Of a stretch of DNA of 64,000 nucleotides, positions 26,040-56,302 are shown piece by piece; the first letter of the stretch is position 1; each line of letters starts with the position of its first letter. The notes beneath the pieces were generated by a model, which saw only the letters and a list, made by a program, of their open reading frames with translations, ran no database searches and was not told where the DNA came from. The translations under genes were made by a program, and so were the position numbers. Source of the stretch: a virus; the IMG/VR virus record IMGVR_UViG_3300035698_017294, positions 42,198-106,197 of that record; one strand, 5' to 3'.

Positions 26040-26234
26040 ACATTCCTACTTGTGGTTCGATTGGTCGTCCGAGATAAGACCCCCGGGGTTTGCCCGCATG
26101 CGTTTGTGTAACTTTTTCATGGAAAATTTTCACACTGGAGGGTGGGTAAGTCCCGGGGGTCTTGACGGTCTTTTGTTATCTATAAAAGTCTGGGCAAGGC
26201 GATGCGTCTTGCATTGTTTGAATTCTAGGAATGT
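26040..26234 (-). ncRNA. candidate structured ncRNA, family A copy 1
   Basis: 9-bp closing stem ACATTCCTA/TAGGAATGT, GAATTCA and CACAAG flanks, 12-bp AAGACCCCCGGG/CCCGGGGGTCTT stem. Confidence 0.6.
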
Positions 26235-26246
26235 GGTTTGATGTTA

Positions 26247-26481
26247 ATAATTCTACTTGTGTGGCGCGGTGATCGCGCAACTCAGGGTAACCCCGACAGC
26301 CTCTCGCGCAGCGATAGGAAGCCCTAACACGTTTTACCTGGCTCTTAGAGACTTACCTGCGTCTGCCGATAAAGAGCTAAGGGGTGGGTATAACGTGTTA
26401 GGGCTGGGGTCCCGAATCTGCAAAGTTCCCTTTACTGTATATGGCGTATCACCATATTATAAAACTGAATGCTAGAATTAT
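26247..26481 (-). ncRNA. candidate structured ncRNA, family A copy 2
   Basis: 9-bp closing stem ATAATTCTA/TAGAATTAT, GCATTCA and CACAAG flanks, 14-bp AGCCCTAACACGTT/AACGTGTTAGGGCT stem. Confidence 0.6.
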
Positions 26482-29534: not shown

Positions 29535-29734
29535 CTATACTCCTCGTACTTTATCAATTCTACTTTTCACCACGATGCCGAGATGCTAAACTGGCGTTAC
29601 CACTTAAATTCTAAGATATTTATTTTTTCTTAATATTTTAGAATTTAAGTATAAACGCAGTTTGGTCTATATGTGCAATATACATATAACATAAGTGGCG
29701 AATCACCACTTAAATATTTGAATCTAGAATTGAG

Positions 29735-29816
29735 TGGGGCTACCCGGACTCGAACTGGGACGGGGTTAACCCAGCGAATTTTAAGTTCGCCGTGTCTGCC
29801 ATTCCACCATAGCCCC
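29735..29816 (-). tRNA. tRNA-Leu(TAA)
   Basis: GCGAA-CTTAAAA-TTCGC with variable arm. Confidence 0.92.
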
Positions 29817-34292: not shown

Positions 34293-34682
34293 TTATTCCA
34301 CAATTTTTTGTTTTAATTCATCAAATGTTTGATGATGATAGCTCCGTTTGTGTGTGGATGGATCCACATGTACGAACACTATTTTATCAATTGAACAGAT
34401 GACAGTGTGATCTGTTTTATTGCGTACTTCGCAACAAACAGTATATGAAGTCTCGCCTACGTCGATAAGGTCGATACCAATCTCAATAAGGTCACCCTTA
34501 CGTGCGGGTTTCTGAAAGTTCACTTCGGATATGAGTTTTGTGACAATGCTTTTCTTGCCTGTCTTATACATAACCCATGCAGCCGCTTCTTCATCCACCC
34601 ATGCTAGTAATTGTCCACCGAATAAAGTATCATGGCTGTTTAAGTCTTGATACCTAATCAAATGGCTTGTAGTAAATTCCAT
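34293..34682 (-). CDS. acyl-CoA thioesterase (hotdog fold)
   Basis: DLNSHDTLFGGQLLAWVDEEA, VGETS, FVHVD. Confidence 0.9.
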   Translation of the reverse strand: MEFTTSHLIRYQDLNSHDTLFGGQLLAWVDEEAAAWVMYKTGKKSIVTKLISEVNFQKPARKGDLIEIGIDLIDVGETSYTVCCEVRNKTDHTVICSIDKIVFVHVDPSTHKRSYHHQTFDELKQKIVE

Positions 34683-35977
34683 TACATCCCCCTCGTTTTG
34701 CCGTGCACATGTTTTACTGTTGGAAAGCGTAACGAATATTGCTTCGTTTTCTGGTCTCGAGTTTCTTCAAAATACTGGACTGTAATTAGGTTGCCAATTA
34801 TAGCACCGGGGTTGTAGTGGTATTCTTGCCTCTGTTCCAAAGACCATCCAGACCCCACGCCAACCTCATTGTCGCGATACATTATAATTGCTTTAGTCAT
34901 TGTAGTTATTGTGTCTTCTAGTCCGGTTATTTTATTAATGATGCGGAACGGCCCAGACTTGATTCTGGTTACTGTAAACTCTGCATCGTGGAACTTTTTA
35001 AGCTTTAACAGGTTTTGCGTACGCTTACCTTCGTACGGCACATCTTTGCGAAGCATTGCACCTTCCCAGCCCTTTTTATTAGCGGCCGCAAAGAAGTCTT
35101 CAAGGTCTTCAACGCTGTGAACTATACGCTGGTTTAATGGTTTTAGGATCGTATTTTTGCGACCAATTGCTTCATATCGTAAGATGCGCTTTGTTAAGTC
35201 GGGGGATTTCTTTTTACCCTCAAACTCGTCAAGTGTTAGCATATCAAAAATCATGTATCTGGGATTTTGTATCACATGCTTTTTCTTGCGTATCTGCTTC
35301 ATTACGCTAGCAAAGTCTTCATTGCCGTGATCATCTATGATACATATTTCGCCATCAAAAACAGTATTACGTAGATCTAGTTTTTTAATTTCTTCAATAA
35401 CCAGCCCGAGTGTTTCTATGGGCTTGCCTGTTCTAGTCCACGCTTTAATATTTCCATCAGCCCCAACTATGATAATGCAGCGCACACCATCAAGCTTCCG
35501 TGATATATACCAGCTAGTTTCATATTTGCCGAACGTTACTCTGTGTATAAACTCTTTGTACTTCTCGGCTAGCGCAACCTTAAACTCCTTTATAGAGCCG
35601 GGCCAGACTTGGTTAATTTGTTTCACACCCAATCGGACCTTTAGGTTTTTATCCAACATCATGTGGACGATGTCTGCATATACTGGATACTCAGCTATAA
35701 AATGGTTAATATAGTTATGTGCCTCGTGCCCTGTTATTTTGCGGGAAGCTAAATCATCAAGCAGTGAGAATATATCCAAATGTATTTCACAGTCATCTTC
35801 CATATACGCTGCCTTCGTTAATGCTGCAGATGTTATCCCGTATGTCATATCAGGATCGTGTGCGTATATAAAATACTTTTTCAAATCTTCGTAACTTGCC
35901 AAGATGATTTTCTTAGCTGTCATCGAATTAGTTGTGTTTAGTTCATCTAAACATTCTTGTAATCTCTTTAAACTCAT
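34682..35977 (-). CDS. ATP-dependent DNA ligase
   Basis: KLDGVR, FDGE, WEGAMLR, LLKLK, VGSG, SLRFP. Confidence 0.95.
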   Translation of the reverse strand: MSLKRLQECLDELNTTNSMTAKKIILASYEDLKKYFIYAHDPDMTYGITSAALTKAAYMEDDCEIHLDIFSLLDDLASRKITGHEAHNYINHFIAEYPVYADIVHMMLDKNLKVRLGVKQINQVWPGSIKEFKVALAEKYKEFIHRVTFGKYETSWYISRKLDGVRCIIIVGADGNIKAWTRTGKPIETLGLVIEEIKKLDLRNTVFDGEICIIDDHGNEDFASVMKQIRKKKHVIQNPRYMIFDMLTLDEFEGKKKSPDLTKRILRYEAIGRKNTILKPLNQRIVHSVEDLEDFFAAANKKGWEGAMLRKDVPYEGKRTQNLLKLKKFHDAEFTVTRIKSGPFRIINKITGLEDTITTMTKAIIMYRDNEVGVGSGWSLEQRQEYHYNPGAIIGNLITVQYFEETRDQKTKQYSLRFPTVKHVHGKTRGM

Positions 35978-36075: not shown

Positions 36076-36091
36076 TTTATAAATTGTAAAT

Positions 36092-36150
36092 AAAAAAAAG
36101 CACACAGCTAATTCCGCCTACTCGTAAGAATAAGCCGAATTAGCCGTATA
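36092..36150 (-). terminator. long-stem intrinsic terminator
   Basis: TATACGGCTAATTC...GAATTAGCTGTGTG followed by T8. Confidence 0.7.
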
Positions 36151-36168
36151 CAATTTTATGCTTTGTCT

Positions 36169-36180
36169 ATGTCAAAGATC
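36169..36180 (-). promoter_or_regulatory. boxA-like antitermination signal
   Basis: GATCTTTGACAT resembles rrn boxA (TGCTCTTTAACA), about 20 nt upstream of the terminator. Confidence 0.5.
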
Positions 36181-36186
36181 TTTCTA

Positions 36187-36260
36187 TGGCGGGGACGGGA
36201 TTTGAACCCGTGACCTTAAGGGTATGAGCCTTACGAGCTGCCAGACTGCTCCACCCCGCT
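36187..36260 (-). tRNA. initiator-like tRNA-Met(CAT)
   Basis: A1xC72 mismatch, A11:U24, TAAGG-CTCATAC-CCTTA. Confidence 0.88.
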
Positions 36261-36264
36261 GTGT

Positions 36265-36475
36265 ACTAGCTTTACTTCTTGCGACTGGTCGTTAGTAATA
36301 TCGCATTGGCCGGTTTTCCGCCTTTGCACTAATACCTGCGCAGCTTGGAAAGCGGAGCGGGTGATCGTGGTTGGCGGAAAAAAGGCCTGGAGGCGATTAT
36401 TACCGGCGATCAATATCGCGTCTTCAATAATCGTCCGAGACGTTACGTCCCAGAATGTGATAGCCTAAAGCTAGT
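36265..36475 (-). ncRNA. candidate structured ncRNA, family B copy 1
   Basis: 10-bp closing stem ACTAGCTTTA/TAAAGCTAGT; AGGCTA, GGGACGTAACGTCTCG, TCCAGG and AAGTAAA shared with copy 2. Confidence 0.62.
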
Positions 36476-36757
36476 TAGTTTTACTTTTTGGCGGTACCCC
36501 TCTACAACGATAGGTTGTCGATAGATTGTTCCCGAGCGAATGCGAGGGAAAATCTGGCGATAAGAGGTGGTTCGCCAACTTTGGACTTGTTGGGGATCCG
36601 GATCCCCGATCGGGGAGCCCCGCACGCGTCGGGGCGCCTGCGGTCCGGAGAGCCGGAGACCTGGAAAGCCCATTTTGGAACAAAACGTGTTCCCGCGAGA
36701 CGTTACGTCTCACAGCATTACGAATCACCGTGGGCTGCACTAGCCTGAACTCGGCTA
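36476..36757 (-). ncRNA. candidate structured ncRNA, family B copy 2
   Basis: Same ordered motifs (AGGCTA, GAGACGTAACGTCTCG, TCCAGG, AAGTAAA); many GC-rich hairpins. Confidence 0.62.
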
Positions 36758-36810
36758 CTACAGATTACGCTGATTTTGACCGTAACACATATCTAAATCT
36801 AAAACTAAAG

Positions 36811-37133
36811 TGGAGGCGAAGGGAGTTGAACCCTTGTCCACACGATAACGAAACATGCTGTTTCTTACAGGCTTAGTTAGTTTTTACACTTTTATTTGTT
36901 AATCCGGGGCGGTTCTGAAACTAACTTAGTAGTCCCCGGCGTTGGCCATTTGTTTAGCCGTGGTCTAGCGGCTTTCCGATCCGGCGCCGATTCCCTAACA
37001 TCGGAGTCTTAGGGTCGACGGCTACTTAGTTAACCTAAGCGGCTAGTGGTAAATATTCGTCAATTACATTGAAAGGAGTATCATGCCTGTAGCATATATC
37101 GATAGAATCGCATGTCGAAACCAATGCGCCCCC
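36811..37133 (-). ncRNA. ssrA: tmRNA; predicted tag (A)DEYLPLAA* at 37035-37061
   Basis: 5' GGGGGCG...GGTTTCGAC, 3' GGACAAGGGTTCAACTCCCTTCGCCTCCA, G3:U70, tag ending LAA-stop. Confidence 0.93.
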
Positions 37134-38672: not shown

Positions 38673-39560
38673 TTAAAAATTACCGTAGTTAACCTGTAAG
38701 CAAGTTAATCCGAGTTCCTTTCGCCACATATCTACAACTTGATCACGATCGTCCAGTACGAAGTCAACGTAATACTTGCCCTTCACATGTGCATCATATA
38801 GCTCACGCTTTACAAGGCTGTCCTTGCGATCGTCGCCAGGGTGCCGCATGAAAAGATCGGTATACTTAACTTTGTTATCAAACAACCATTCACGGGTGAG
38901 TGTCTCACATGATCCGTCGCGCCCAGATAAAAGTATCACGTGGCGAGTCGGATCTGCCATAATAAGGTCGTAAATAGGCTGACTAAGCGTGTCTAGCTTA
39001 ACCTTCTGGAATTCAAATGGCCCGCGATTACCGCGATGCAGCGCAAGAGTTCCATCAAGATCACAAATAATCGCACGTGGTAGAGCAAGATCCTGTACCA
39101 CCAAGTCAAGTTCAACATCTGGTTCTTTGATAAAGCTATCGTGGAAATCACGTATCACCTTTTCACCGACAGAGTTAGGGCAAACTAGGTCTCGGCGGAT
39201 GCACTCTTCTATAGGTACACTAAGGAAGTCCGTGTTGAGTTGTGCTACAACTGGATTTTTGCAACCCTCTTCCTTGTTGATCTCCTGCGCAATCTGCTGC
39301 ATGCGAGTCCAGTGCTTTGGGTGTAGATTTGTATCGTCTACAATAACACTGAAGCCCCCCTTTACTATTTGCTTTACCATCCAGTCGCGTGTTTTTAACA
39401 CAAGCTTTTCATTGTAAGGCGTCCACTTACCACCTAGCATCATACGCAGGTCGTCTTTGTTGACACGCTTGATCTGGCCAGGATGATCATTTACTTGTTG
39501 CTTCGCCCATGTCGACTTTCCCGACGCTGGAAGTCCCTTGACTACTATTATTTTCCTCAA
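38673..39560 (-). CDS. pnk: polynucleotide 5'-kinase/3'-phosphatase (T4 PseT-like)
   Basis: GLPASGKSTWA, DDTNL; HAD domain DLDGT, SGR, DDRDQV. Confidence 0.93.
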   Translation of the reverse strand: MRKIIVVKGLPASGKSTWAKQQVNDHPGQIKRVNKDDLRMMLGGKWTPYNEKLVLKTRDWMVKQIVKGGFSVIVDDTNLHPKHWTRMQQIAQEINKEEGCKNPVVAQLNTDFLSVPIEECIRRDLVCPNSVGEKVIRDFHDSFIKEPDVELDLVVQDLALPRAIICDLDGTLALHRGNRGPFEFQKVKLDTLSQPIYDLIMADPTRHVILLSGRDGSCETLTREWLFDNKVKYTDLFMRHPGDDRKDSLVKRELYDAHVKGKYYVDFVLDDRDQVVDMWRKELGLTCLQVNYGNF

Positions 39561-40611
39561 ACTTGATCCCCCTTTTTATTATTTTCCATATATACTCACC
39601 GGCTTTATCAAATCGCCTATCCCAAATATGGAACAGTAGGGCTGGATGCCGCTCCCGCTGAAAGCACTTAGCTACATACTTGCGCTCAGTATCAGGTGAA
39701 AGTTGCATCTTTTTAAGCGTGTTTAAGCCGCTGCGGATTAGATCGTCGTGCTTTTGATAAAACTTTGCGCATGTTTCGTCAATCCAATCCCAATGCTCTT
39801 CACCAGCGCCCTGGCGCAGGCTTTCAATCGGTTCACCTTTTATTATATAATCCAGCACAGTTTTCCCAGTCAGAGACATGCGTATACGTTGAAGCCGTTT
39901 GTACTCCTCGAACTTGACCTTCATTCTAAAGTCTTCTTTTGGGTAATACAAAACAAAGCCTTCTTTGTTCGTAAGATTAAGCTTTTGCGCACCAGCAAAG
40001 TCACGTGTTGCAATTGTATCAGCTGGGTATCGGTGCGGTGTGGGAAATCCTGGATTGTGATACGCTGTTTCTCCAAGCCTGTTGTCTATTGTTGCTACCA
40101 ATATAAGTTCTCTACGATCGCCGTAATTTATAACTAAACGATCTTCGGCGCGGTCGTCCGGATAGATGATTTCGAATTGATATGTCAACCCGTCTTTATA
40201 CTCTAAGCCACTATACTTTTCATTGAGGATTTTATTGGCTTGTATTGCCTGCTTGGAATCGAACGATCCACGTGTCGCTATGCCGCGGTAGTCACCATAG
40301 GCATACATAATGCCAGCATAGCCGTCCAGCTTATCGTATATTTCGAACTCGCTAATCGGTATTTCGCCGTCTTCTAGCTCATCAAAGTTAAAAAACTTGT
40401 ACAGCGGGCGAGAAATAACTTTCCAGTCATCATCAACAATCAATCCTCTGCACATCCTTACCGACAAGGGCCAGTACCAATCAAACATGGCCTTCTTGGT
40501 ATAGTTAAGTATCGATAATGGAATGGCTGGATCTGGATGATGCTGTAATCTTACGTACCCAGCATCCATCATATACTCAATATCTTTGCGCAGAGCGCCA
40601 TCGATAATCAT
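39487..40611 (-). CDS. T4 Rnl1-family RNA ligase
   Basis: CRGLI, KFFN, KLDG, ATRGSF, EGFV, KVKFEEY. Confidence 0.92.
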   Translation of the reverse strand: MIIDGALRKDIEYMMDAGYVRLQHHPDPAIPLSILNYTKKAMFDWYWPLSVRMCRGLIVDDDWKVISRPLYKFFNFDELEDGEIPISEFEIYDKLDGYAGIMYAYGDYRGIATRGSFDSKQAIQANKILNEKYSGLEYKDGLTYQFEIIYPDDRAEDRLVINYGDRRELILVATIDNRLGETAYHNPGFPTPHRYPADTIATRDFAGAQKLNLTNKEGFVLYYPKEDFRMKVKFEEYKRLQRIRMSLTGKTVLDYIIKGEPIESLRQGAGEEHWDWIDETCAKFYQKHDDLIRSGLNTLKKMQLSPDTERKYVAKCFQRERHPALLFHIWDRRFDKAGEYIWKIIKRGIKFEENNSSQGTSSVGKVDMGEATSK

Positions 40612-46026: not shown

Positions 46027-49000
46027 TTAGCATAATGAGAGTCCACATTGTGGGCACATTGTGCAACCTTCTTGCATTATCATTTGTGATCCACAGGACT
46101 CACATATTTTATTGGTTTGTGTACCATTCGGGATGTAGGATTTGAGTAGTTTGTTAAGTATAAAAATAAATGAACCTAGCGGCACTTCTGCCGTGTCTAC
46201 TGCATCCGTTATTTCCGTTATCGATACGTTGTGTCGCAATAGCAGCCCCAACATCCGACATATACGTTCTATGTTCGATTGGTGGTAGCTCTTTGTTTCC
46301 AGCTCTTTAATGTAGGGTTTTAGGAACTTACGTTTATGTGCTACCTTCCTTAGCAAGTCTAGCGTCTCCTTTGTAACAACTGTTTTTTCCGTGGAGTTAG
46401 TATGCGTGAATACAGCTATTGGCTTTTCTTTGTTAGACGTCGGAAATGCTAGTATCACGTACCATTTCTTATTTTCTGATTTAATTAAGTGACCTCGTGC
46501 ATGGAATGTCTCTGGAAACTTTACATTATACAGAATCTCCAGCTCTTCGTGCTCCTTCTTGGATAAAGTTTCCATAACAGTTGTCATGGTTCCCGCTCTG
46601 TATGTCGTAAGTCCCTTAATGCCTTTATCGTATGCTTTCATGTAGAAGTCGGAGAAATCATCAAAAGTAAAGCTAGCAGGAATGTTAACGGTTTTAGACA
46701 TACCAAGATGCAGGTATTTGTATATAACCTCCATAACCGACAAGTGCTCATCAATGCTTAGGTCTTCTGCGCCAGCATAAACTCCTTCATCGTTTAATTC
46801 CATCATACGACCAATTTCTACATTGTCAAGAACCCATTCCCACCCATAATCACGAATCGATTCTGCTTTGGTCATCCCACGATTTTTATCTATTTCATAA
46901 TTAACGCTGCCATATCGACAGGTTAGCACCTCTTCATCACCGCGTAGTTCCAGTTTAAAATCATCTGTTTCAAACCACTCGCCTTTTTTGGCGTCGGGGA
47001 ATTTTAAGTCGTCATATAGTAAGCCAGCAATATCCCCGTCGGTTACCGTGACCCATCTTGTATATTCTTTGCAGAACACAGGCTCTCCGCCTCCAGACAT
47101 TAGCCGCGCTAGTATGCCAGTATTTCCAGTAGGTGCCAATGTAGTAAGGTGTGAATTCCGTAGCCCGTGCTTTTTCATACCCCCTTCTAGGGCTGCTTTA
47201 GTTGCTGCAGGTAGAGGTAATGCTTTCCAGTAGTCTGTATTTATGTATTCATCATAATCAAAGTGCTCAAATTGGCCCTTTTCCTTAGCCAATAATACTG
47301 AGGCCGCGTACGAGTGATAAGTTATCCATTCGTATATTTCTTCTAACAGTTCCAGGAATTTAGGAGAGCCGTATCGTAAGCCCGCCATGAAGCCCAAAGA
47401 TCCCAGACCCATAACGCCAAGGCCTATACGTCGGAACGCCAGAGAGGCCGTTTCTAGCTCTTTCAGGGGATATGTAGTTATGTCCAGTATATTGTCTAAG
47501 AATCGTACCATTATGGGTATATCGCGGGCCAGCTTTGCGAAATCAAAAATACTTGATTTTGAGTCCCAGTAAGCCGGTAAATTGATGGAGCCAAGATCGC
47601 ATACTCCTGTAGCCATAGGCACCTCACCACACTGTAAACTATTTATATAATGCGTGAACTTTTTTTCAACTCCTTCAACTTTACATGCAGTAAAAAAGTT
47701 ATGAAAGTCATCTACGGTTCCATTATAAACATCTTCTTTGCCAACATGTGTGACTGAAACCACTCTGTGATTGAAATTAACAGCAGCTTCTTGTAAAGCC
47801 CTATAAGTTGGGAATGGGGAAGTCTTTCCAAACCTAATTGGTACTTTATTTTCTTTGCACAGTTCTTCGAATTCCACTTTCATAGGATTTTTTTTTAATT
47901 TAAATTTAAGGTCGGTATAAAGCTTTAGTTGCGCTTGCCTCGCATTTTGTTTATACTTTTCCTTTTCTATGCGTTGGCCACATGTAGCGGAGCAAACGCC
48001 CTGTTCGCGTCTAGTATAAGTTACATTGAAAGAACTGCCACACAATTCGCATTTTTTATTTATCCTAACTTGATTCCTTTCATCAAAATAAGCATCATAC
48101 CCAGAGGCAAGCGCCTCCTTATAAGTAAGTAATGCCTTTTGACCGACTTCATCAAAAGATTCAAAACCGGCGTCAAGTGCAGCCCATTTGGCTAATCCAT
48201 CTATAGCGCCTAGATGATTTACTCGCCAATCGGAAAATTTTTGTGGCAATCCATGTTCTTTTGCATAGGCCCACCATTCGCGACTACCAAAACGACGACC
48301 TTCTTGTTTTGTGAGTATTACAGCATGTTTTTTCAAGTCCTCGTTAGTGTATCCAGAATAACGTCCATTGCCTGACCCGGAAACCGACTCAGACATATTA
48401 TCATGGTATCTTTGTTTCTCTTCGTCACTGGCATTTTTATACCAACGGTTCATTGGATTCTTTTCACCGCGCATATCTTCGCCGTGCAACTTATCATGCG
48501 CTTGTTTGGTCATCATTTCTAAATTAGCCGGCCTATTATTTTGGGCATTTCGGTCCTTATGGTGGATTACATGCGCAGCTGGAATACTCTCTAAATTATT
48601 ATGAAATTGGCAGATGAACCTATGCTCTGCACAATGAGTTTTTTTATCTCCGTTCTGAAGCCAAATGTATTCTTGAGAATTAGAATTTGCTCCTGGAAAA
48701 ATTCCTTTAATGGTTTTAAAAGATTTCGTTACAATACTTAAACTATCTCCAGGAATCAATTTAGCAGCTTCGCGGTAATCGCCGGAAGTCAATTTAAATT
48801 TGTGATTTTTTGTAACACGTGTTTTACTGCCATCATCTAATAGTACTTCGTAGATATCCTCATGCCCCGTAAATCTAGGATGTCGCATATATCTAATTGC
48901 AATTCTATCTTTATCATCATAGCAGAATACTGGAACGTCTTTGCCGTCGTCTACGAGAGTTTTTATTGGTACATTTCCACGACCGTCTGCTGTATATACC

Positions 49001-49947
49001 AGAGTATCCCCAGTGATACATGGGTTAGTTTGGAAAACCTTTTCCGCGTAACTCATCGGATTCATTTTGTTTACTATATCTAAAAATAAAATGCCCGGTT
49101 CATTGCGAGTGTATGAAGCTGTCATTAGCATATCATACAGTTCCTTGGCCTTTATAGTTTCGTATACGATAACTGGATAACCTTTAGCATGCCATAATTC
49201 TAGGTCCCCGTTCCATTCTTCCTCATACTGCTCATACGTAGTATCCGGATAAACCAGATCCCAGTCTTTATCATCTTTTACACATTGCATGAAGCCATCT
49301 GTGACACCTACAGACATGTTGAACTTTGTTAGAAAGTCCTTTTTCAGTTTCGCATTTATAAAGTCCTTGATGTCGGGATGCCATATACTCAGCACGAACA
49401 TCATGGCACCTTTGCGTAGTTTCTTTTTAAGGTCGGTGCGCTCTGCGTCACGATCTAATTTCGCTTCGCCGCCACCACGTGTGATGACTGCGGACACCTT
49501 ATCCCATATCTCTGCAAAGGCAACTGGGCCAGGAGTTGTGGATTTAATGCCCTCAATAACAGTACCAGAAGGCCGCAGATAAGACAGGTTAGTTCCGTAA
49601 CCAGCTTCACTCTTTAGTATGTGGGCTGCCATCTTAATCTGATTGAAGATATTTTCCAAGCTGTCTACATCTTTTATCCCATTGTCGGCTGGATGCATTG
49701 TAGTACAGTTAATAAGTGTTGTGTTCTTGTAGGTTGTGCCGGCATTTGCAATTATGCGGCCACCGGGGATAAATGGTTTTAGTGTTGGTGATAATATATT
49801 TAAAAACGAGTTATATGCTTGTTCTTTTTGCTCAGGAAGTTCTGCTGTTGCCGCAGCGTGTGCTACACGTTCCCAAGTCTGTTCTTCTGATTCACCGTTG
49901 AATCTATAATTAGTGTCCCACAGTTCGTGCGGCAAATTACTTGTCAT
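46027..49947 (-). CDS. nrdJ: class II (AdoCbl-dependent) ribonucleotide reductase with intein
   Basis: PGGRIIANAG, LINC, NEPG, TNP|...|CGE, CDLGSINL, RRIGLG, APTG, TTYR, C-terminal Zn ribbon. Confidence 0.9.
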   Translation of the reverse strand: MTSNLPHELWDTNYRFNGESEEQTWERVAHAAATAELPEQKEQAYNSFLNILSPTLKPFIPGGRIIANAGTTYKNTTLINCTTMHPADNGIKDVDSLENIFNQIKMAAHILKSEAGYGTNLSYLRPSGTVIEGIKSTTPGPVAFAEIWDKVSAVITRGGGEAKLDRDAERTDLKKKLRKGAMMFVLSIWHPDIKDFINAKLKKDFLTKFNMSVGVTDGFMQCVKDDKDWDLVYPDTTYEQYEEEWNGDLELWHAKGYPVIVYETIKAKELYDMLMTASYTRNEPGILFLDIVNKMNPMSYAEKVFQTNPCITGDTLVYTADGRGNVPIKTLVDDGKDVPVFCYDDKDRIAIRYMRHPRFTGHEDIYEVLLDDGSKTRVTKNHKFKLTSGDYREAAKLIPGDSLSIVTKSFKTIKGIFPGANSNSQEYIWLQNGDKKTHCAEHRFICQFHNNLESIPAAHVIHHKDRNAQNNRPANLEMMTKQAHDKLHGEDMRGEKNPMNRWYKNASDEEKQRYHDNMSESVSGSGNGRYSGYTNEDLKKHAVILTKQEGRRFGSREWWAYAKEHGLPQKFSDWRVNHLGAIDGLAKWAALDAGFESFDEVGQKALLTYKEALASGYDAYFDERNQVRINKKCELCGSSFNVTYTRREQGVCSATCGQRIEKEKYKQNARQAQLKLYTDLKFKLKKNPMKVEFEELCKENKVPIRFGKTSPFPTYRALQEAAVNFNHRVVSVTHVGKEDVYNGTVDDFHNFFTACKVEGVEKKFTHYINSLQCGEVPMATGVCDLGSINLPAYWDSKSSIFDFAKLARDIPIMVRFLDNILDITTYPLKELETASLAFRRIGLGVMGLGSLGFMAGLRYGSPKFLELLEEIYEWITYHSYAASVLLAKEKGQFEHFDYDEYINTDYWKALPLPAATKAALEGGMKKHGLRNSHLTTLAPTGNTGILARLMSGGGEPVFCKEYTRWVTVTDGDIAGLLYDDLKFPDAKKGEWFETDDFKLELRGDEEVLTCRYGSVNYEIDKNRGMTKAESIRDYGWEWVLDNVEIGRMMELNDEGVYAGAEDLSIDEHLSVMEVIYKYLHLGMSKTVNIPASFTFDDFSDFYMKAYDKGIKGLTTYRAGTMTTVMETLSKKEHEELEILYNVKFPETFHARGHLIKSENKKWYVILAFPTSNKEKPIAVFTHTNSTEKTVVTKETLDLLRKVAHKRKFLKPYIKELETKSYHQSNIERICRMLGLLLRHNVSITEITDAVDTAEVPLGSFIFILNKLLKSYIPNGTQTNKICESCGSQMIMQEGCTMCPQCGLSLC
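47632..49020 (-). mobile_element. 463-aa intein with HNH endonuclease, ending in Gln
   Basis: Starts CITGDTLV, block B TKNH, HHKDRNAQNNRPANL, block F VYNGTVDDFHNF, ends SLQ|C. Confidence 0.9.
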
Positions 49948-53449: not shown

Positions 53450-53640
53450 ATTCTCTTAACCATTGTTTGTAATTCAGTCATGGTTATCTTCCTCTTTCTG
53501 TATTCCCTAGAACTGATATAGGCATATTCTTCGCCCTTATAATCCTCCTCTGGGTCACACGTGATACCAATGGACTCTATGTATACATAGGTCCCGTTTA
53601 CTAGTTCCAACTTAGTTGATATTTTAAGATTACTAATCAT
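53443..53640 (-). CDS. hypothetical protein
   Basis: ORF track; overlaps its neighbours. Confidence 0.5.
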   Translation of the reverse strand: MISNLKISTKLELVNGTYVYIESIGITCDPEEDYKGEEYAYISSREYRKRKITMTELQTMVKRIC

Positions 53641-56302
53641 CTAATAAGATCCTTACAACTCTAACTGACTTACCATTTAATTTTCGTGAAAACGAGTCTT
53701 TGTCTAAAACTCTTCCTTCCTGATGCAGCTCACTGAATATTGCTTTGCGGCTATGCCCGAAGGTTCGCCCGACCTTCTGCAGGTATTCACATACTGCAGA
53801 ATATGCTAAGTTAACTGCCATATACACTTCTTTGCCGTTATAGTAACCAACAGTTGGAATGAACCTTCGTGTTTCATCTGATACGCTGGAGGATGCTTGT
53901 ATTTTTAGCTTATTAGAAGCTAGCATTTCATGCAGCGTTTCCCAGAATATGTTGGAGGCAAGTTCCTCTTTAGCGGCTTGTAGGTTTAAACGCATTTCGT
54001 TTTCAATACGTTCGCAGAAACCCTTGATATGCTTCAGCGGATCATCCCATATAAAGTGCGCTATAAAGTAGTAGCTGGTCATCAACATAGCAAAATTTCT
54101 AGCTATACGTATTGAGTTAGGCTCGCCACGTATTAGTTCATTGAACTGTACCGTATAGTCTGCCATAACCTTGGCAAACTCTGCTGGGTCTTTACCAAGC
54201 ACCCATTGAATGTAGCGCGGCGTAAACCCACGATACTTTGCCTGCATTGCATTGCAAACTTGTCCCTTGACCAGATCGGTATCATTTTTTGATCTGTATC
54301 TGATTGTTATCATTCGGGCTAGGTTTGAGGCTTCGCCTTCAATATCATGTTCAGCTGTTATGGCCAAGTAACCGCGAATGTAGTACGATTCCTGAAATGA
54401 TGAATCCGACTTTAATCGCGAGCGAGCAGAGTCGTCGGCGTAACCTTGTAGAATGGCTATGGCCTTAGCCCAGTCATTCTTTGAGAAGTTAGCCTTCTTA
54501 AAATCATCGACATGGAAAAATGCATCCTTAAATCTGAACCCCATTTTCTGTAGCGAGTATGGGGTACTTAGCCACGATGGCACGGTTTTGAAATTACCAT
54601 AGAACATCATCATTTTATTAAGTAGCCAAGATTTACCTTTACCGGTAGTTCCCTGTAGATAGAAAATGAAACGCGACTTGTCTTCTTTTGTTAGGAATGA
54701 TCCGATAACCGGAAGCATTGCATGGGCGAACGTCGCCTCCGCGATAAAGTCATCTTCAGGGGTTGTCAGTAATGTATCACGTATATGTGTTTTTACTTCT
54801 TCAAATTCATCGTCTTCCAGCTTTATAAAGTCCAACTGCGATGCCTTGTCTTCGCCCGTTAGGTCGATTTTTATTTCACTGTTCTCTGTGATACCATCTA
54901 CATTTACAATATACGACGGCGTGTAATACGCTGTTAGTTCTGTATTGTATCCGAAGTTTTTACTTATCTCCAATTTACGCGGCTCACTAAATGCAGCGAA
55001 GGCCATTGTAAGTTCGCGGAAGTGTGTAAATGATAAATCATCGATTCCACCCGCTGTATAAAGGGCTTCACGGAATCTTGACTCTGTTGCAAGCTGTGCT
55101 GGATCAACATCGAATGGGAATGATTGCCCATCACGTTTATGTATCACACCTTTGAAATGTCGATACTTCTTAATTCCATCATCGATTTCTAGATCTTCCA
55201 TAATGTCATAAATGAAAGTAGATAATGACTGATCACCGTTAGGGCGCCTGAGGTAGTAACAATTGTGATCCACGAACATATCTACCAGAGGTCCAGTTGG
55301 TGACTGTTGCTGGGGTTCATCATCTCCGCGCGTTCTGTAATAAAATGCTATTGGAGATTTACTTTTACCTATTATTCCACATTGGCCTGGACATATCTTC
55401 TCGAACTTCGTTTCCTGCAATGTAGCACACAAGATCGGCTTAAAGCCCTTTTTAATTGCGCGCTCAATATAGTACTTAACCTTTCTGGGATCGTAATCAG
55501 AGCACTTAGATAAGAACTCCTTTTCAAAATATTCTGGACCACCATCTATACTAATGAAAAGCATCATTAGAGCTACGCGTTCCTGATCTGTTAGATGGTG
55601 AGATGCCTCAACCTTTTCTTTTAGATTACGAATGGCAGCGCAGTTCTTTTGCATTGCTTCCAGAGGATTGGCAGAGTTTAACACCTGTGCGTGGTTAGCA
55701 AACTTGATATTTTTGAAGCTAAAGTCGGGGTCTGTGAAATATGATTGTTTTTGGGTTTTTTGGTGTAATGCATACGGACCTTTGACCAAATTCCCAGATG
55801 CAGCACTCTCTTGTTTTGGAAACAGCTCTAAGTGAATTCCAGGATTTACTGGCCTTACTTTAGTAAACATGTTGTCCAACGAGTGCTTCACCATACGAGC
55901 ATCCATTGGTACTTCAAAGAATACCCAAACGTGATACCCTTTGAATCCGGACCACTCCACATAGTGTGGCAGGTTAAACTTACTAAGGACTTCTGAGACT
56001 TCTTTCACTTGTTTGTCAAGAACAGGTTTCCAGTCGTTAACGTCAAAGTCCGGTTTACCCCATTCGGACTTATTAACGTCGATATCTACTACGGCCCATT
56101 TAACCGTCCACTTCCCAGGTGGATCCTCCTTGAGTTGATAAAAGCCGAATGTGGCTTTACCCGCTAAGTGATCCTCGATATCCTGGAGACTGATTGGACG
56201 CTCAAATGCCGTATACTGTCCGTCACTTCTTTGAATTGCATAGCGAGCTTCGGTATGCACAAAAAGCTTTTTGTATTCTTCGGCTGTTAATGGGATGTCC
56301 AA
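53633..56302 (-). CDS. AEP primase fused to a PriL-like Cys cluster and a P-loop helicase
   Basis: VDID, SGFKGYHVW, ELFPKQ; C...H...C...C cluster; GTTGKGKS, VDDFK. Confidence 0.85.
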   Translation of the reverse strand: MDIPLTAEEYKKLFVHTEARYAIQRSDGQYTAFERPISLQDIEDHLAGKATFGFYQLKEDPPGKWTVKWAVVDIDVNKSEWGKPDFDVNDWKPVLDKQVKEVSEVLSKFNLPHYVEWSGFKGYHVWVFFEVPMDARMVKHSLDNMFTKVRPVNPGIHLELFPKQESAASGNLVKGPYALHQKTQKQSYFTDPDFSFKNIKFANHAQVLNSANPLEAMQKNCAAIRNLKEKVEASHHLTDQERVALMMLFISIDGGPEYFEKEFLSKCSDYDPRKVKYYIERAIKKGFKPILCATLQETKFEKICPGQCGIIGKSKSPIAFYYRTRGDDEPQQQSPTGPLVDMFVDHNCYYLRRPNGDQSLSTFIYDIMEDLEIDDGIKKYRHFKGVIHKRDGQSFPFDVDPAQLATESRFREALYTAGGIDDLSFTHFRELTMAFAAFSEPRKLEISKNFGYNTELTAYYTPSYIVNVDGITENSEIKIDLTGEDKASQLDFIKLEDDEFEEVKTHIRDTLLTTPEDDFIAEATFAHAMLPVIGSFLTKEDKSRFIFYLQGTTGKGKSWLLNKMMMFYGNFKTVPSWLSTPYSLQKMGFRFKDAFFHVDDFKKANFSKNDWAKAIAILQGYADDSARSRLKSDSSFQESYYIRGYLAITAEHDIEGEASNLARMITIRYRSKNDTDLVKGQVCNAMQAKYRGFTPRYIQWVLGKDPAEFAKVMADYTVQFNELIRGEPNSIRIARNFAMLMTSYYFIAHFIWDDPLKHIKGFCERIENEMRLNLQAAKEELASNIFWETLHEMLASNKLKIQASSSVSDETRRFIPTVGYYNGKEVYMAVNLAYSAVCEYLQKVGRTFGHSRKAIFSELHQEGRVLDKDSFSRKLNGKSVRVVRILLDD

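Follow-up and report, generated by a model that had tools for sequence, protein, structure and literature searches.

The window analysed here, 64 kb in length, is the 3' part of a 106-kb IMG/VR virus contig that is estimated to be 56% complete. All of its RNA genes (19 tRNA genes, a tmRNA gene, and a group I intron) are on the minus strand, and the window also encodes a DNA ligase, PNKP, and an Rnl1-type RNA ligase. The tmRNA and tRNA-Met are separated by a gap of 547 nt, which holds two abutting structured units, as the first-pass annotation had claimed; both are on the minus strand (Table 1). The length it gave for the downstream unit (W_down, 211 nt) is right, but the upstream unit (W_up) is 334 nt long rather than about 280 nt; 50 nt at its 5' end, and with them the 5' strand of the closing stem, had been omitted. 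Since the closing stems define the limits of the units, the 5' end of W_up lies right at the 3' end of the tmRNA. The two units overlap by one nucleotide, and 4 nt separate the end of W_down from tRNA-Met. Their terminal duplexes are perfect, with 9 bp in W_up and 10 bp in W_down.

Table 1. Features of the RNA locus and of the other units in the window (positions are those of the window; a2 and a1, 5' and 3' strands of the closing stem).
Feature	Position	Strand	Evidence or remark
tmRNA	36808/36810-37133	(-)	Directly upstream of W_up; tag DEYLPLAA; ARAGORN and Rfam, 88 bits
W_up, upstream unit, 334 nt, candidate retron-type template RNA	36475-36808	(-)	Closing duplex UUAGUUUUA/UAAAACUAA; fold z = -6.0
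W_up a2	36800-36808	(-)	Begins 0-2 nt past the tmRNA 3' end
W_up invariant G, candidate priming guanosine	36799	(-)	Directly after a2
W_up P2, 10 bp, UAA triloop, candidate RT-docking stem-loop	36693-36715	(-)	P2 covariation
W_up variable GC-rich hairpin domains, candidate msd (template)	36487-36692	(-)	RNA fold; cDNA-sense DNA fold z = -4.5
W_up AAG (36484-36486) and a1 (36475-36483)	36475-36486	(-)	
W_down, downstream unit, 211 nt, candidate retron-type template RNA	36265-36475	(-)	Closing duplex ACUAGCUUUA/UAAAGCUAGU; fold z = -5.9
W_down a2 (36466-36475) and invariant G (36465)	36465-36475	(-)	
W_down P2, 9 bp, UAA triloop	36434-36454	(-)	Starts 11 nt past the G
W_down AAG (36275-36277) and a1 (36265-36274)	36265-36277	(-)	
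tRNA-Met(CAU)	36187-36260	(-)	Directly downstream of W_down; 1:72 mismatch
W_X1	29554-29733	(-)	Abuts the 3' end of tRNA-Leu (29734-29816); descriptor and covariance model, 39.9 bits
W_X2	26247-26481	(-)	Downstream of tRNA-Glu; 35.0 bits; in 'family A' of the first-pass annotation
W_X3	26040-26234	(-)	In tandem with W_X2; 34.8 bits; in 'family A' of the first-pass annotation
Repair, ligase, reductase, and primase genes around the RNA island	38673-40611, 34682-35977, 46027-49947, 53633-56302	(-)	

A series of ordered motifs had been listed as common to the two units. The hairpin G(G/A)GACG-UAA-CGUCUCG and the 3' AAGUAAA are indeed shared. AGGCUA, on the other hand, is not homologous between them: in W_down it is made up of the end of the closing stem, the invariant G, and the linker, while in W_up it lies within an inserted hairpin of 83 nt that precedes the conserved hairpin P2 and that short units do not have. 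UCCAGG is not found across the family. The hairpin, searched for as the 14-mer GACGUAACGUCUCG, has exactly two copies in the 64-kb window, both on the minus strand, where 0.13 would be expected from chance alone.

The GC content is 0.47-0.59 across the units and 0.34-0.44 in the flanking genes, so the reported elevation over the flanks holds. Compared with shuffled sequences, both units are strongly folded (z = -5.9 for W_down and -6.0 for W_up), and their cDNA-sense strands, when folded as DNA, gave z-scores of -3.9 and -4.5, respectively. The region between P2 and the 3' strand forms one long hairpin in W_down and most other units, and two branched GC-rich domains in W_up and its orthologue, with only three to five sequences per subtype. 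A coding function was rejected. The overlapping open reading frames (60-116 aa) have no Pfam match and are not conserved in the related genome; to the first-pass annotation they had looked spurious.

An Rfam scan lent no support to RNase P, GOLLD, ROOL, or the ribozyme classes, which the first-pass annotation had named, and it matched no family, msr included. At the gathering score there was no match within 36261-36807; at E <= 10 the sole match was tmRNA_permuted at 12.9 bits (cut-off 47), and it begins in the true tmRNA. Two other likenesses were considered and rejected. A resemblance to Cas9 crRNA/tracrRNA (GUUUUAGA, AGGCUA) was set aside, since the elements do not come in a matching order. 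A role as a restriction-site or palindrome decoy was also set aside: 68 six-base palindromes were observed in 14 units and 57 were expected from dinucleotide shuffles (p = 0.09), with nominal enrichment in only two of the 14 units.

The two units belong to a larger family, of which at least 17 members were found in four related phage contigs. The units range from 97 to 375 nt and share one order of elements: a terminal duplex of 7-16 bp ending in UA, a G, a linker of about 11 nt, the hairpin P2 with a 3-nt loop, variable and mostly GC-rich hairpins, AAG, and the 3' strand of the duplex. The window holds five of them (W_up, W_down, W_X1, W_X2, and W_X3). The terminal duplex is fully paired in 17/17 units, with a mean length of 9.5 bp, and each of its positions 3, 6, 7, and 8 shows three or four types of Watson-Crick pair across the 17 units. 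The last two pairs are U-A and then A-U in 16 of the 17. A G directly follows a2 in every unit; it is preceded by UA in 16 units and by CA in one. The base after this G is A, C, or G, mostly A (it is G in W_down), and thus the AG of the AGC context is kept and the C is not. AAG stands ahead of a1 in 14 of the 17 units.

P2 has a stem of 7-10 bp and a 3-nt loop with an invariant G...CG closing. Its covariation was assessed by aligning 12 units over their 5' cores. In this alignment 91.9% of the cells are paired, and compensatory double changes occur at seven of the nine pairs (25 cells). None of 500 shuffles attained the observed score, and slid controls were 33-53% paired.

The family was searched for with a descriptor and with a covariance model. 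The descriptor demanded a terminal duplex of 7 bp or more, with its 5' strand followed by G and its 3' strand preceded by AG, and a hairpin that has a stem of 6 bp or more and a loop of 3 nt closed by YG...CG. In the genome of the window it found four true units, against 0.37 per shuffle, together with one mirror match, which lies on the other strand at the P2 of W_up, a near-palindrome; in the complete genome of a relative (G001, see below) it found five units, against 1.3 in shuffles. All true matches have the same orientation as the tRNA and RT genes. The covariance model, R1, was built from the 12-unit 5'-core alignment, and it recovers only family units in the window, in G001, and in a second relative (L211), whose fourth unit is weak (17.9 bits). 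In 943 kb from further phage loci, among them other retron loci, R1 had no match. The first-pass annotation had placed W_X2 and W_X3 in one family and W_up and W_down in another. These two families and W_X1 are a single family, captured by the single model R1. W_X1 is AU-rich and 180 nt long, with the closing stem UCAAUUCUA/UAGAAUUGA; its orthologue in G001 (110894-111268) has an identical closing stem and a body of 375 nt.

Searches by primary sequence did not extend the family. A blastn search of the RNA against 50,697 phage records gave no match, and nhmmer did not even link the paralogues W_up and W_down to each other. Exact-pattern scans of IMG/VR and metagenome contigs returned the known relative and chance matches only. 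In other phages with tmRNA-ligase synteny, the tmRNA is followed by ordinary genes and by no such RNA.

A strong promoter-like site was found at 38209-38181, with no further one, and no terminator-like site, down to tRNA-Met; specifically, a simple scan found none of either kind between the units and the tmRNA or tRNA-Met. Since no such site intervenes and the unit ends abut the 3' end of the tmRNA and the 5' end of tRNA-Met, co-transcription and release by RNase P- and RNase Z-type cuts are plausible, judging from gene arrangement. The view of the first-pass annotation that these are multi-helix non-coding RNAs on the tRNA strand is supported. Between tRNA-Met and tRNA-Asn (36076-36186, minus strand), a long imperfect hairpin is followed by eight U and is thus terminator-like; it is preceded by a promoter-like stretch containing TTGACA, and the simple scan flagged neither. 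Because of these two stretches, tRNA-Asn may begin a separate transcript.

Several other observations concern the surroundings of the units. A segment of the tmRNA (36845-36862, minus strand) contains GUAAAAACUAACUAAGC, a near-repeat of the W_up/W_down junction (36465-36485, minus strand; GUAAAACUAACUAGC), and the tmRNA of G001 carries the same segment. This near-repeat may be a shared processing or binding signal, or it may be due to chance. On the flanks of the RNA island are a tRNA-repair pair, PNKP and a T4 Rnl1-type RNA ligase, and an ATP-dependent DNA ligase. Farther along are a ribonucleotide reductase, which is split by an intein that contains an HNH endonuclease, and a primase of AEP type that belongs to the TOTE conflict-system family. 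In a relative (L050), a GC-rich stretch upstream of the RNA island (L050:2080-2300) contains GGGAAAGUCCG, which is reminiscent of the P4 region of RNase P RNA; it is followed by a consensus-like TTGACA/TATAAT promoter, and Rfam gave no match for the stretch at E <= 5. Just upstream of the tmRNA of this relative, there are two matches to tRNA models that ARAGORN did not call (L050:2502-2573 and 2741-2829), one of them with an insertion.

The adjacent DNA ligase (53% identical) led us to G001, a complete phage genome of 189 kb with direct terminal repeats, and to a near-identical contig of 140 kb. The contig of the window is collinear in gene order with G001 from 33.9 to 146.5 kb. G001 has six units. 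Its tmRNA/tRNA-Met gap holds one unit of 296 nt, with the closing stem UAGUUUUA/UAAAACUA as in W_up, and the outer pairs of its hairpin, AGGACG-UAG-CGUCCU, covary with those of the window copies. A scan of G001 for this hairpin found one more copy outside the tRNA region, at 172.8-173.0 kb, with two more units in tandem just upstream. These three units form a tandem array before an RT gene, and the last of them ends 9 nt before the start of a 276-aa open reading frame. The RT-proximal unit and W_up have in common the a2/a1 strands UAGUUUUA/UAAAACUA and a 14-nt P2 core, GAGACGUAACGUCU. The subtype of the units between tmRNA and tRNA-Met is the one that is common to the RT-proximal unit of G001, and the window units are very probably homologous to the RT-adjacent RNAs.

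By its sequence, the 276-aa product is a retron-clade reverse transcriptase. It matches Pfam RVT_1 (3e-20), and its best PADLOC model is retron RT_XIII (7.7e-79, 264 bits); some 80 further PADLOC retron RT models also match. The NCBIfam retron St85 model gave 223 bits, just under its cut-off of 235, and Drt2 gave 39 bits. The hallmark motifs of retron RTs are present as NAKYH (NAxxH), YADD, and SVTG (VTG). The RTs of the closest relatives are 272-276 aa long. In L211 the RT is 75% identical and has four tandem units upstream, and in L212 the RT is 42% identical, also has RT_XIII as its best model, and has two units upstream. A scan of genome contigs with an 80%-identical RT returned only distant bacterial retron RTs.

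The order of genes around the RT is kept in G001 (L208:1-5070, corresponding to 171-176 kb) and L211 (L211:1-5800): a bpMoxR AAA+ ATPase, a ViaA-like vWA protein, three or four RNA units, and the RT. The RT is followed in both by an open reading frame of 65-68 aa, a glycosyltransferase-like one of 449-456 aa, and one of 120-132 aa. Any gene of this conserved neighborhood may be the effector of the system or a cofactor of the RT. We found no RT gene on the 106-kb contig of the window. This is uninformative because the contig matches only 33.9-146.5 kb of G001, where the RT is at 172 kb.

A bona fide retron allows the layout to be compared. In a Bacilli MAG (L223:9700-12121), there is an Ec107-like retron (402 bits) with an RT of 315 aa that carries YSDD. 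Upstream of this RT is a single RNA with the same a2-G-hairpin-a1 layout as the phage units. The RNA and RT are followed by open reading frames of 86 aa and 354 aa without a family match.

The first-pass annotation had taken the units to be an RNA of unknown kind. Because they have the msr-msd architecture and because homologous copies stand directly upstream of retron-clade RT genes in relatives, W_up and W_down look instead like retron-type (msr-msd-like) template RNAs that have moved from a retron cassette into a tRNA/tmRNA operon (probability about 0.62). In retron ncRNAs the terminal repeats pair, a priming G comes just past the 5' one, and between the repeats are from one to three msr hairpins and an msd hairpin that is long and stable (PMC7736814). 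The RT of Ec86 binds an msr stem of 8 bp with a 3-nt loop, and the priming G is in an AGC-like context (PMC6868368). The phage units resemble the msr-msd RNAs of Retron-Eco1/Ec86 and of the myxobacterial type XIII retrons (Mx162/Mx65) in that their terminal inverted repeats pair, a G comes immediately past the 5' strand, an msr-type hairpin has about 8 bp and a loop of 3 nt, and one or more stable hairpins form the candidate template. Their sizes are also similar, the Mx162 precursor being 241 nt long (PMC7736814; PMC6868368). In the relatives, the units are directly upstream of an RT with NAxxH, YADD, and VTG, as in retrons.

There are also differences from known retrons. The window units are not beside an RT gene; their neighbors are tmRNA and tRNA genes in the genome of a large phage. 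Several distinct units are present per phage genome (five in the window and six in the complete relative). The context of the G is AGA or AGG rather than AGC. Compared with type XIII retrons, the RT of the relatives is minimal, at 276 aa, and does not have the type XIII N-terminal extension. No type XIII accessory genes (SWIM/winged-helix, HEAT/ARM) were found among the neighbors of the RT in the relatives. Points against the retron reading are that W_up has the 83-nt insertion between G and P2 and two branched 'msd' domains (its orthologue, too, has an inserted hairpin there), that the base after the G is mostly A and not the C of the canonical AGC, and that the RT falls just short of the St85 cut-off. 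Moreover, because no RT is contiguous and the neighbors of the units are the tmRNA and tRNA-Met, we file the units as a detached variant and not as a canonical retron.

If the units are retron-type templates, they would probably work as follows. The two ends of each unit pair (a2/a1), and the invariant G is the first residue past the 5' strand. DNA synthesis in retrons starts from the 2'-OH of the priming G, and the G of the phage units could serve in the same way. P2, about 11 nt past the G, would be the likely docking site of the RT, and the template would consist of the variable GC-rich hairpins between P2 and the conserved AAG beside the 3' strand. A small retron-clade RT, which is encoded about 50 kb away in the relatives and presumably lies in the part of the genome outside the contig of the window, would act in trans, and from each unit it would make a separate small single-stranded DNA. 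The promoter of the operon would supply the RNAs, and RNase P at tRNA-Met and a 3'-end cut at the tmRNA would trim their ends.

To our knowledge, retron-type template RNAs in a tRNA operon far from the RT gene have not been described for retron-type enzymes. Stable non-tRNA RNAs of phage tRNA clusters are known, such as RNA C and D of T4 and RNA1 of T5. Like these, the window units are non-tRNA RNAs inside a phage tRNA operon that are probably freed by tRNA-processing enzymes. However, the T4 and T5 RNAs are tRNA-shaped, whereas the window units have no T-arm or acceptor-like geometry and their family is linked to an RT. The action of a natural retron RT in trans on distant templates is not established, and it is known only from engineered systems (10.1101/2023.07.17.549397). 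In such 'multitrons', one retron RT acts in trans with several arrayed template RNAs, as it would in the phage; they are a laboratory construct, and the phage system would be their natural counterpart (10.1101/2023.07.17.549397).

The closest analogue is the UG27 group, presented in a bioRxiv preprint of September 2026. UG27 systems are phage and prophage RT systems with variable ncRNA arrays. The arrays template cDNA hairpins of 50-100 nt, extra units are sometimes found in neighboring intergenic regions, and short free cDNA is made, aided by two accessory proteins, one small and one large (10.64898/2026.09.22.753630). Both systems have a phage-borne RT with an array of structurally conserved and sequence-diverse RNAs, extra units in other intergenic regions, a small and a large open reading frame beside the RT, and small cDNA hairpin products, which for the phage units are presumed. 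The available text mentions no placement of UG27 units in a tRNA/tmRNA operon (10.64898/2026.09.22.753630).

The units might therefore be templates of a phage RT with UG27-like chemistry, in which only a central hairpin would give a short free cDNA without a 2'-5' branch at the G, helped by the small and large open reading frames. The 65-68 aa and 449-456 aa open reading frames that follow the RT in both relatives do recall the UG27 trio of RT, sORF, and bORF. The enzymes, however, are of different kinds. UG27 RTs are of the class 2 'unknown group', have 380-450 aa, and carry YSDD, whereas the RT of the relatives is of the retron clade, has 276 aa, carries YADD, and keeps the retron NAxxH and VTG. 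Its score is also much higher with retron models (264 bits) than with Drt2 (39 bits). The RNAs differ as well: UG27 units are described as about 135-167 nt long, with a pseudoknot and the motifs AUC-N7-UANAG and UUYA, and AUC-N7-UANAG is absent from all 14 family units tested. In addition, the terminal duplex with the adjacent G is the priming geometry of retrons. UG27-like chemistry is thus improbable.

Another explanation is that the units in the tRNA operon are never copied into DNA and are decoys or scaffolds derived from retron RNAs, for example sequestering the retron RT or effector of a host or of a rival, or regulating the phage's own RT. The units are detached from any RT gene, they would be highly expressed by virtue of their position, and their neighborhood is rich in tRNA-repair genes (PNKP and the Rnl1-type ligase). 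Furthermore, conservation is limited to P1, the G, and P2, which would contact an RT, and the 'template' part varies freely. But the AAG beside a1, where templating would start, is also conserved, and the DNA-sense folds are stable, as expected of real templates. RT-adjacent and detached units are also interchangeable in design. We consider a decoy or scaffold to be an unlikely role.

It is very unlikely that the units are a new family of structured RNA unrelated to retrons, such as a freed ribozyme or a protein-binding RNA, which is adjacent to RT genes by coincidence. Such a family would agree with the missing Rfam match and the strong folding z-scores. However, the adjacency to an RT recurs in three independent RT lineages (100%, 75%, and 42% identity), the last unit always ends a few nucleotides before the RT start, the layout matches that of the L223 retron, and no members were found in genomes demonstrably without an RT.

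The weakest proposal, a mimic of a piece of rRNA or a remnant of a tmRNA duplication, can be dismissed. An 11-nt match of a G001 unit to 23S 2098-2108 (E = 0.25), at the base of the L1 stalk, went no further than those 11 nt. The matches to 16S, 23S, and 5S that blastn-short found in the E. coli rrnB operon were 7-13 nt long and at chance level, and LSU and SSU models had no match at E <= 10. The weak tmRNA_permuted matches (12.9 and 24 bits), which together with the resemblance of GUAAAAACUAACUAAGC in the tmRNA to the W_up/W_down junction might suggest a remnant, begin in the acceptor arm of the true tmRNA.

Interest in retrons has centred on their role in bacterial defence against phages and on their use for genome editing, and in the textbook form one RNA stands beside one RT. 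What is new here is that retron-type templates are multiplied and partly relocated into the tRNA/tmRNA operon of a phage, in a lineage with a minimal retron-clade RT. If the RT copies these templates in trans, natural retron RTs would be multiplexable, which so far they have been only by engineering, tRNA punctuation could set the ends of retron RNAs, and phages would use retron chemistry for their own purposes. There would also be a parallel to the UG27 arrays that suggests convergent evolution of viral "cDNA libraries". The compact pairs of RT and template (an RT of 276 aa and templates of 97-375 nt) could serve editing tools. A bolder proposal, which we make tentatively and think rather doubtful, is that a large, apparently virulent phage runs a natural 'multitron', in which one minimal retron RT serves five to seven templates, most of them cut out of a tRNA/tmRNA operon by tRNA enzymes, and the distinct small DNAs act in infection. 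If so, these DNAs might be, for instance, decoys against host defences or weapons against competing phages, and retrons would be offensive viral tools as well as bacterial defences.
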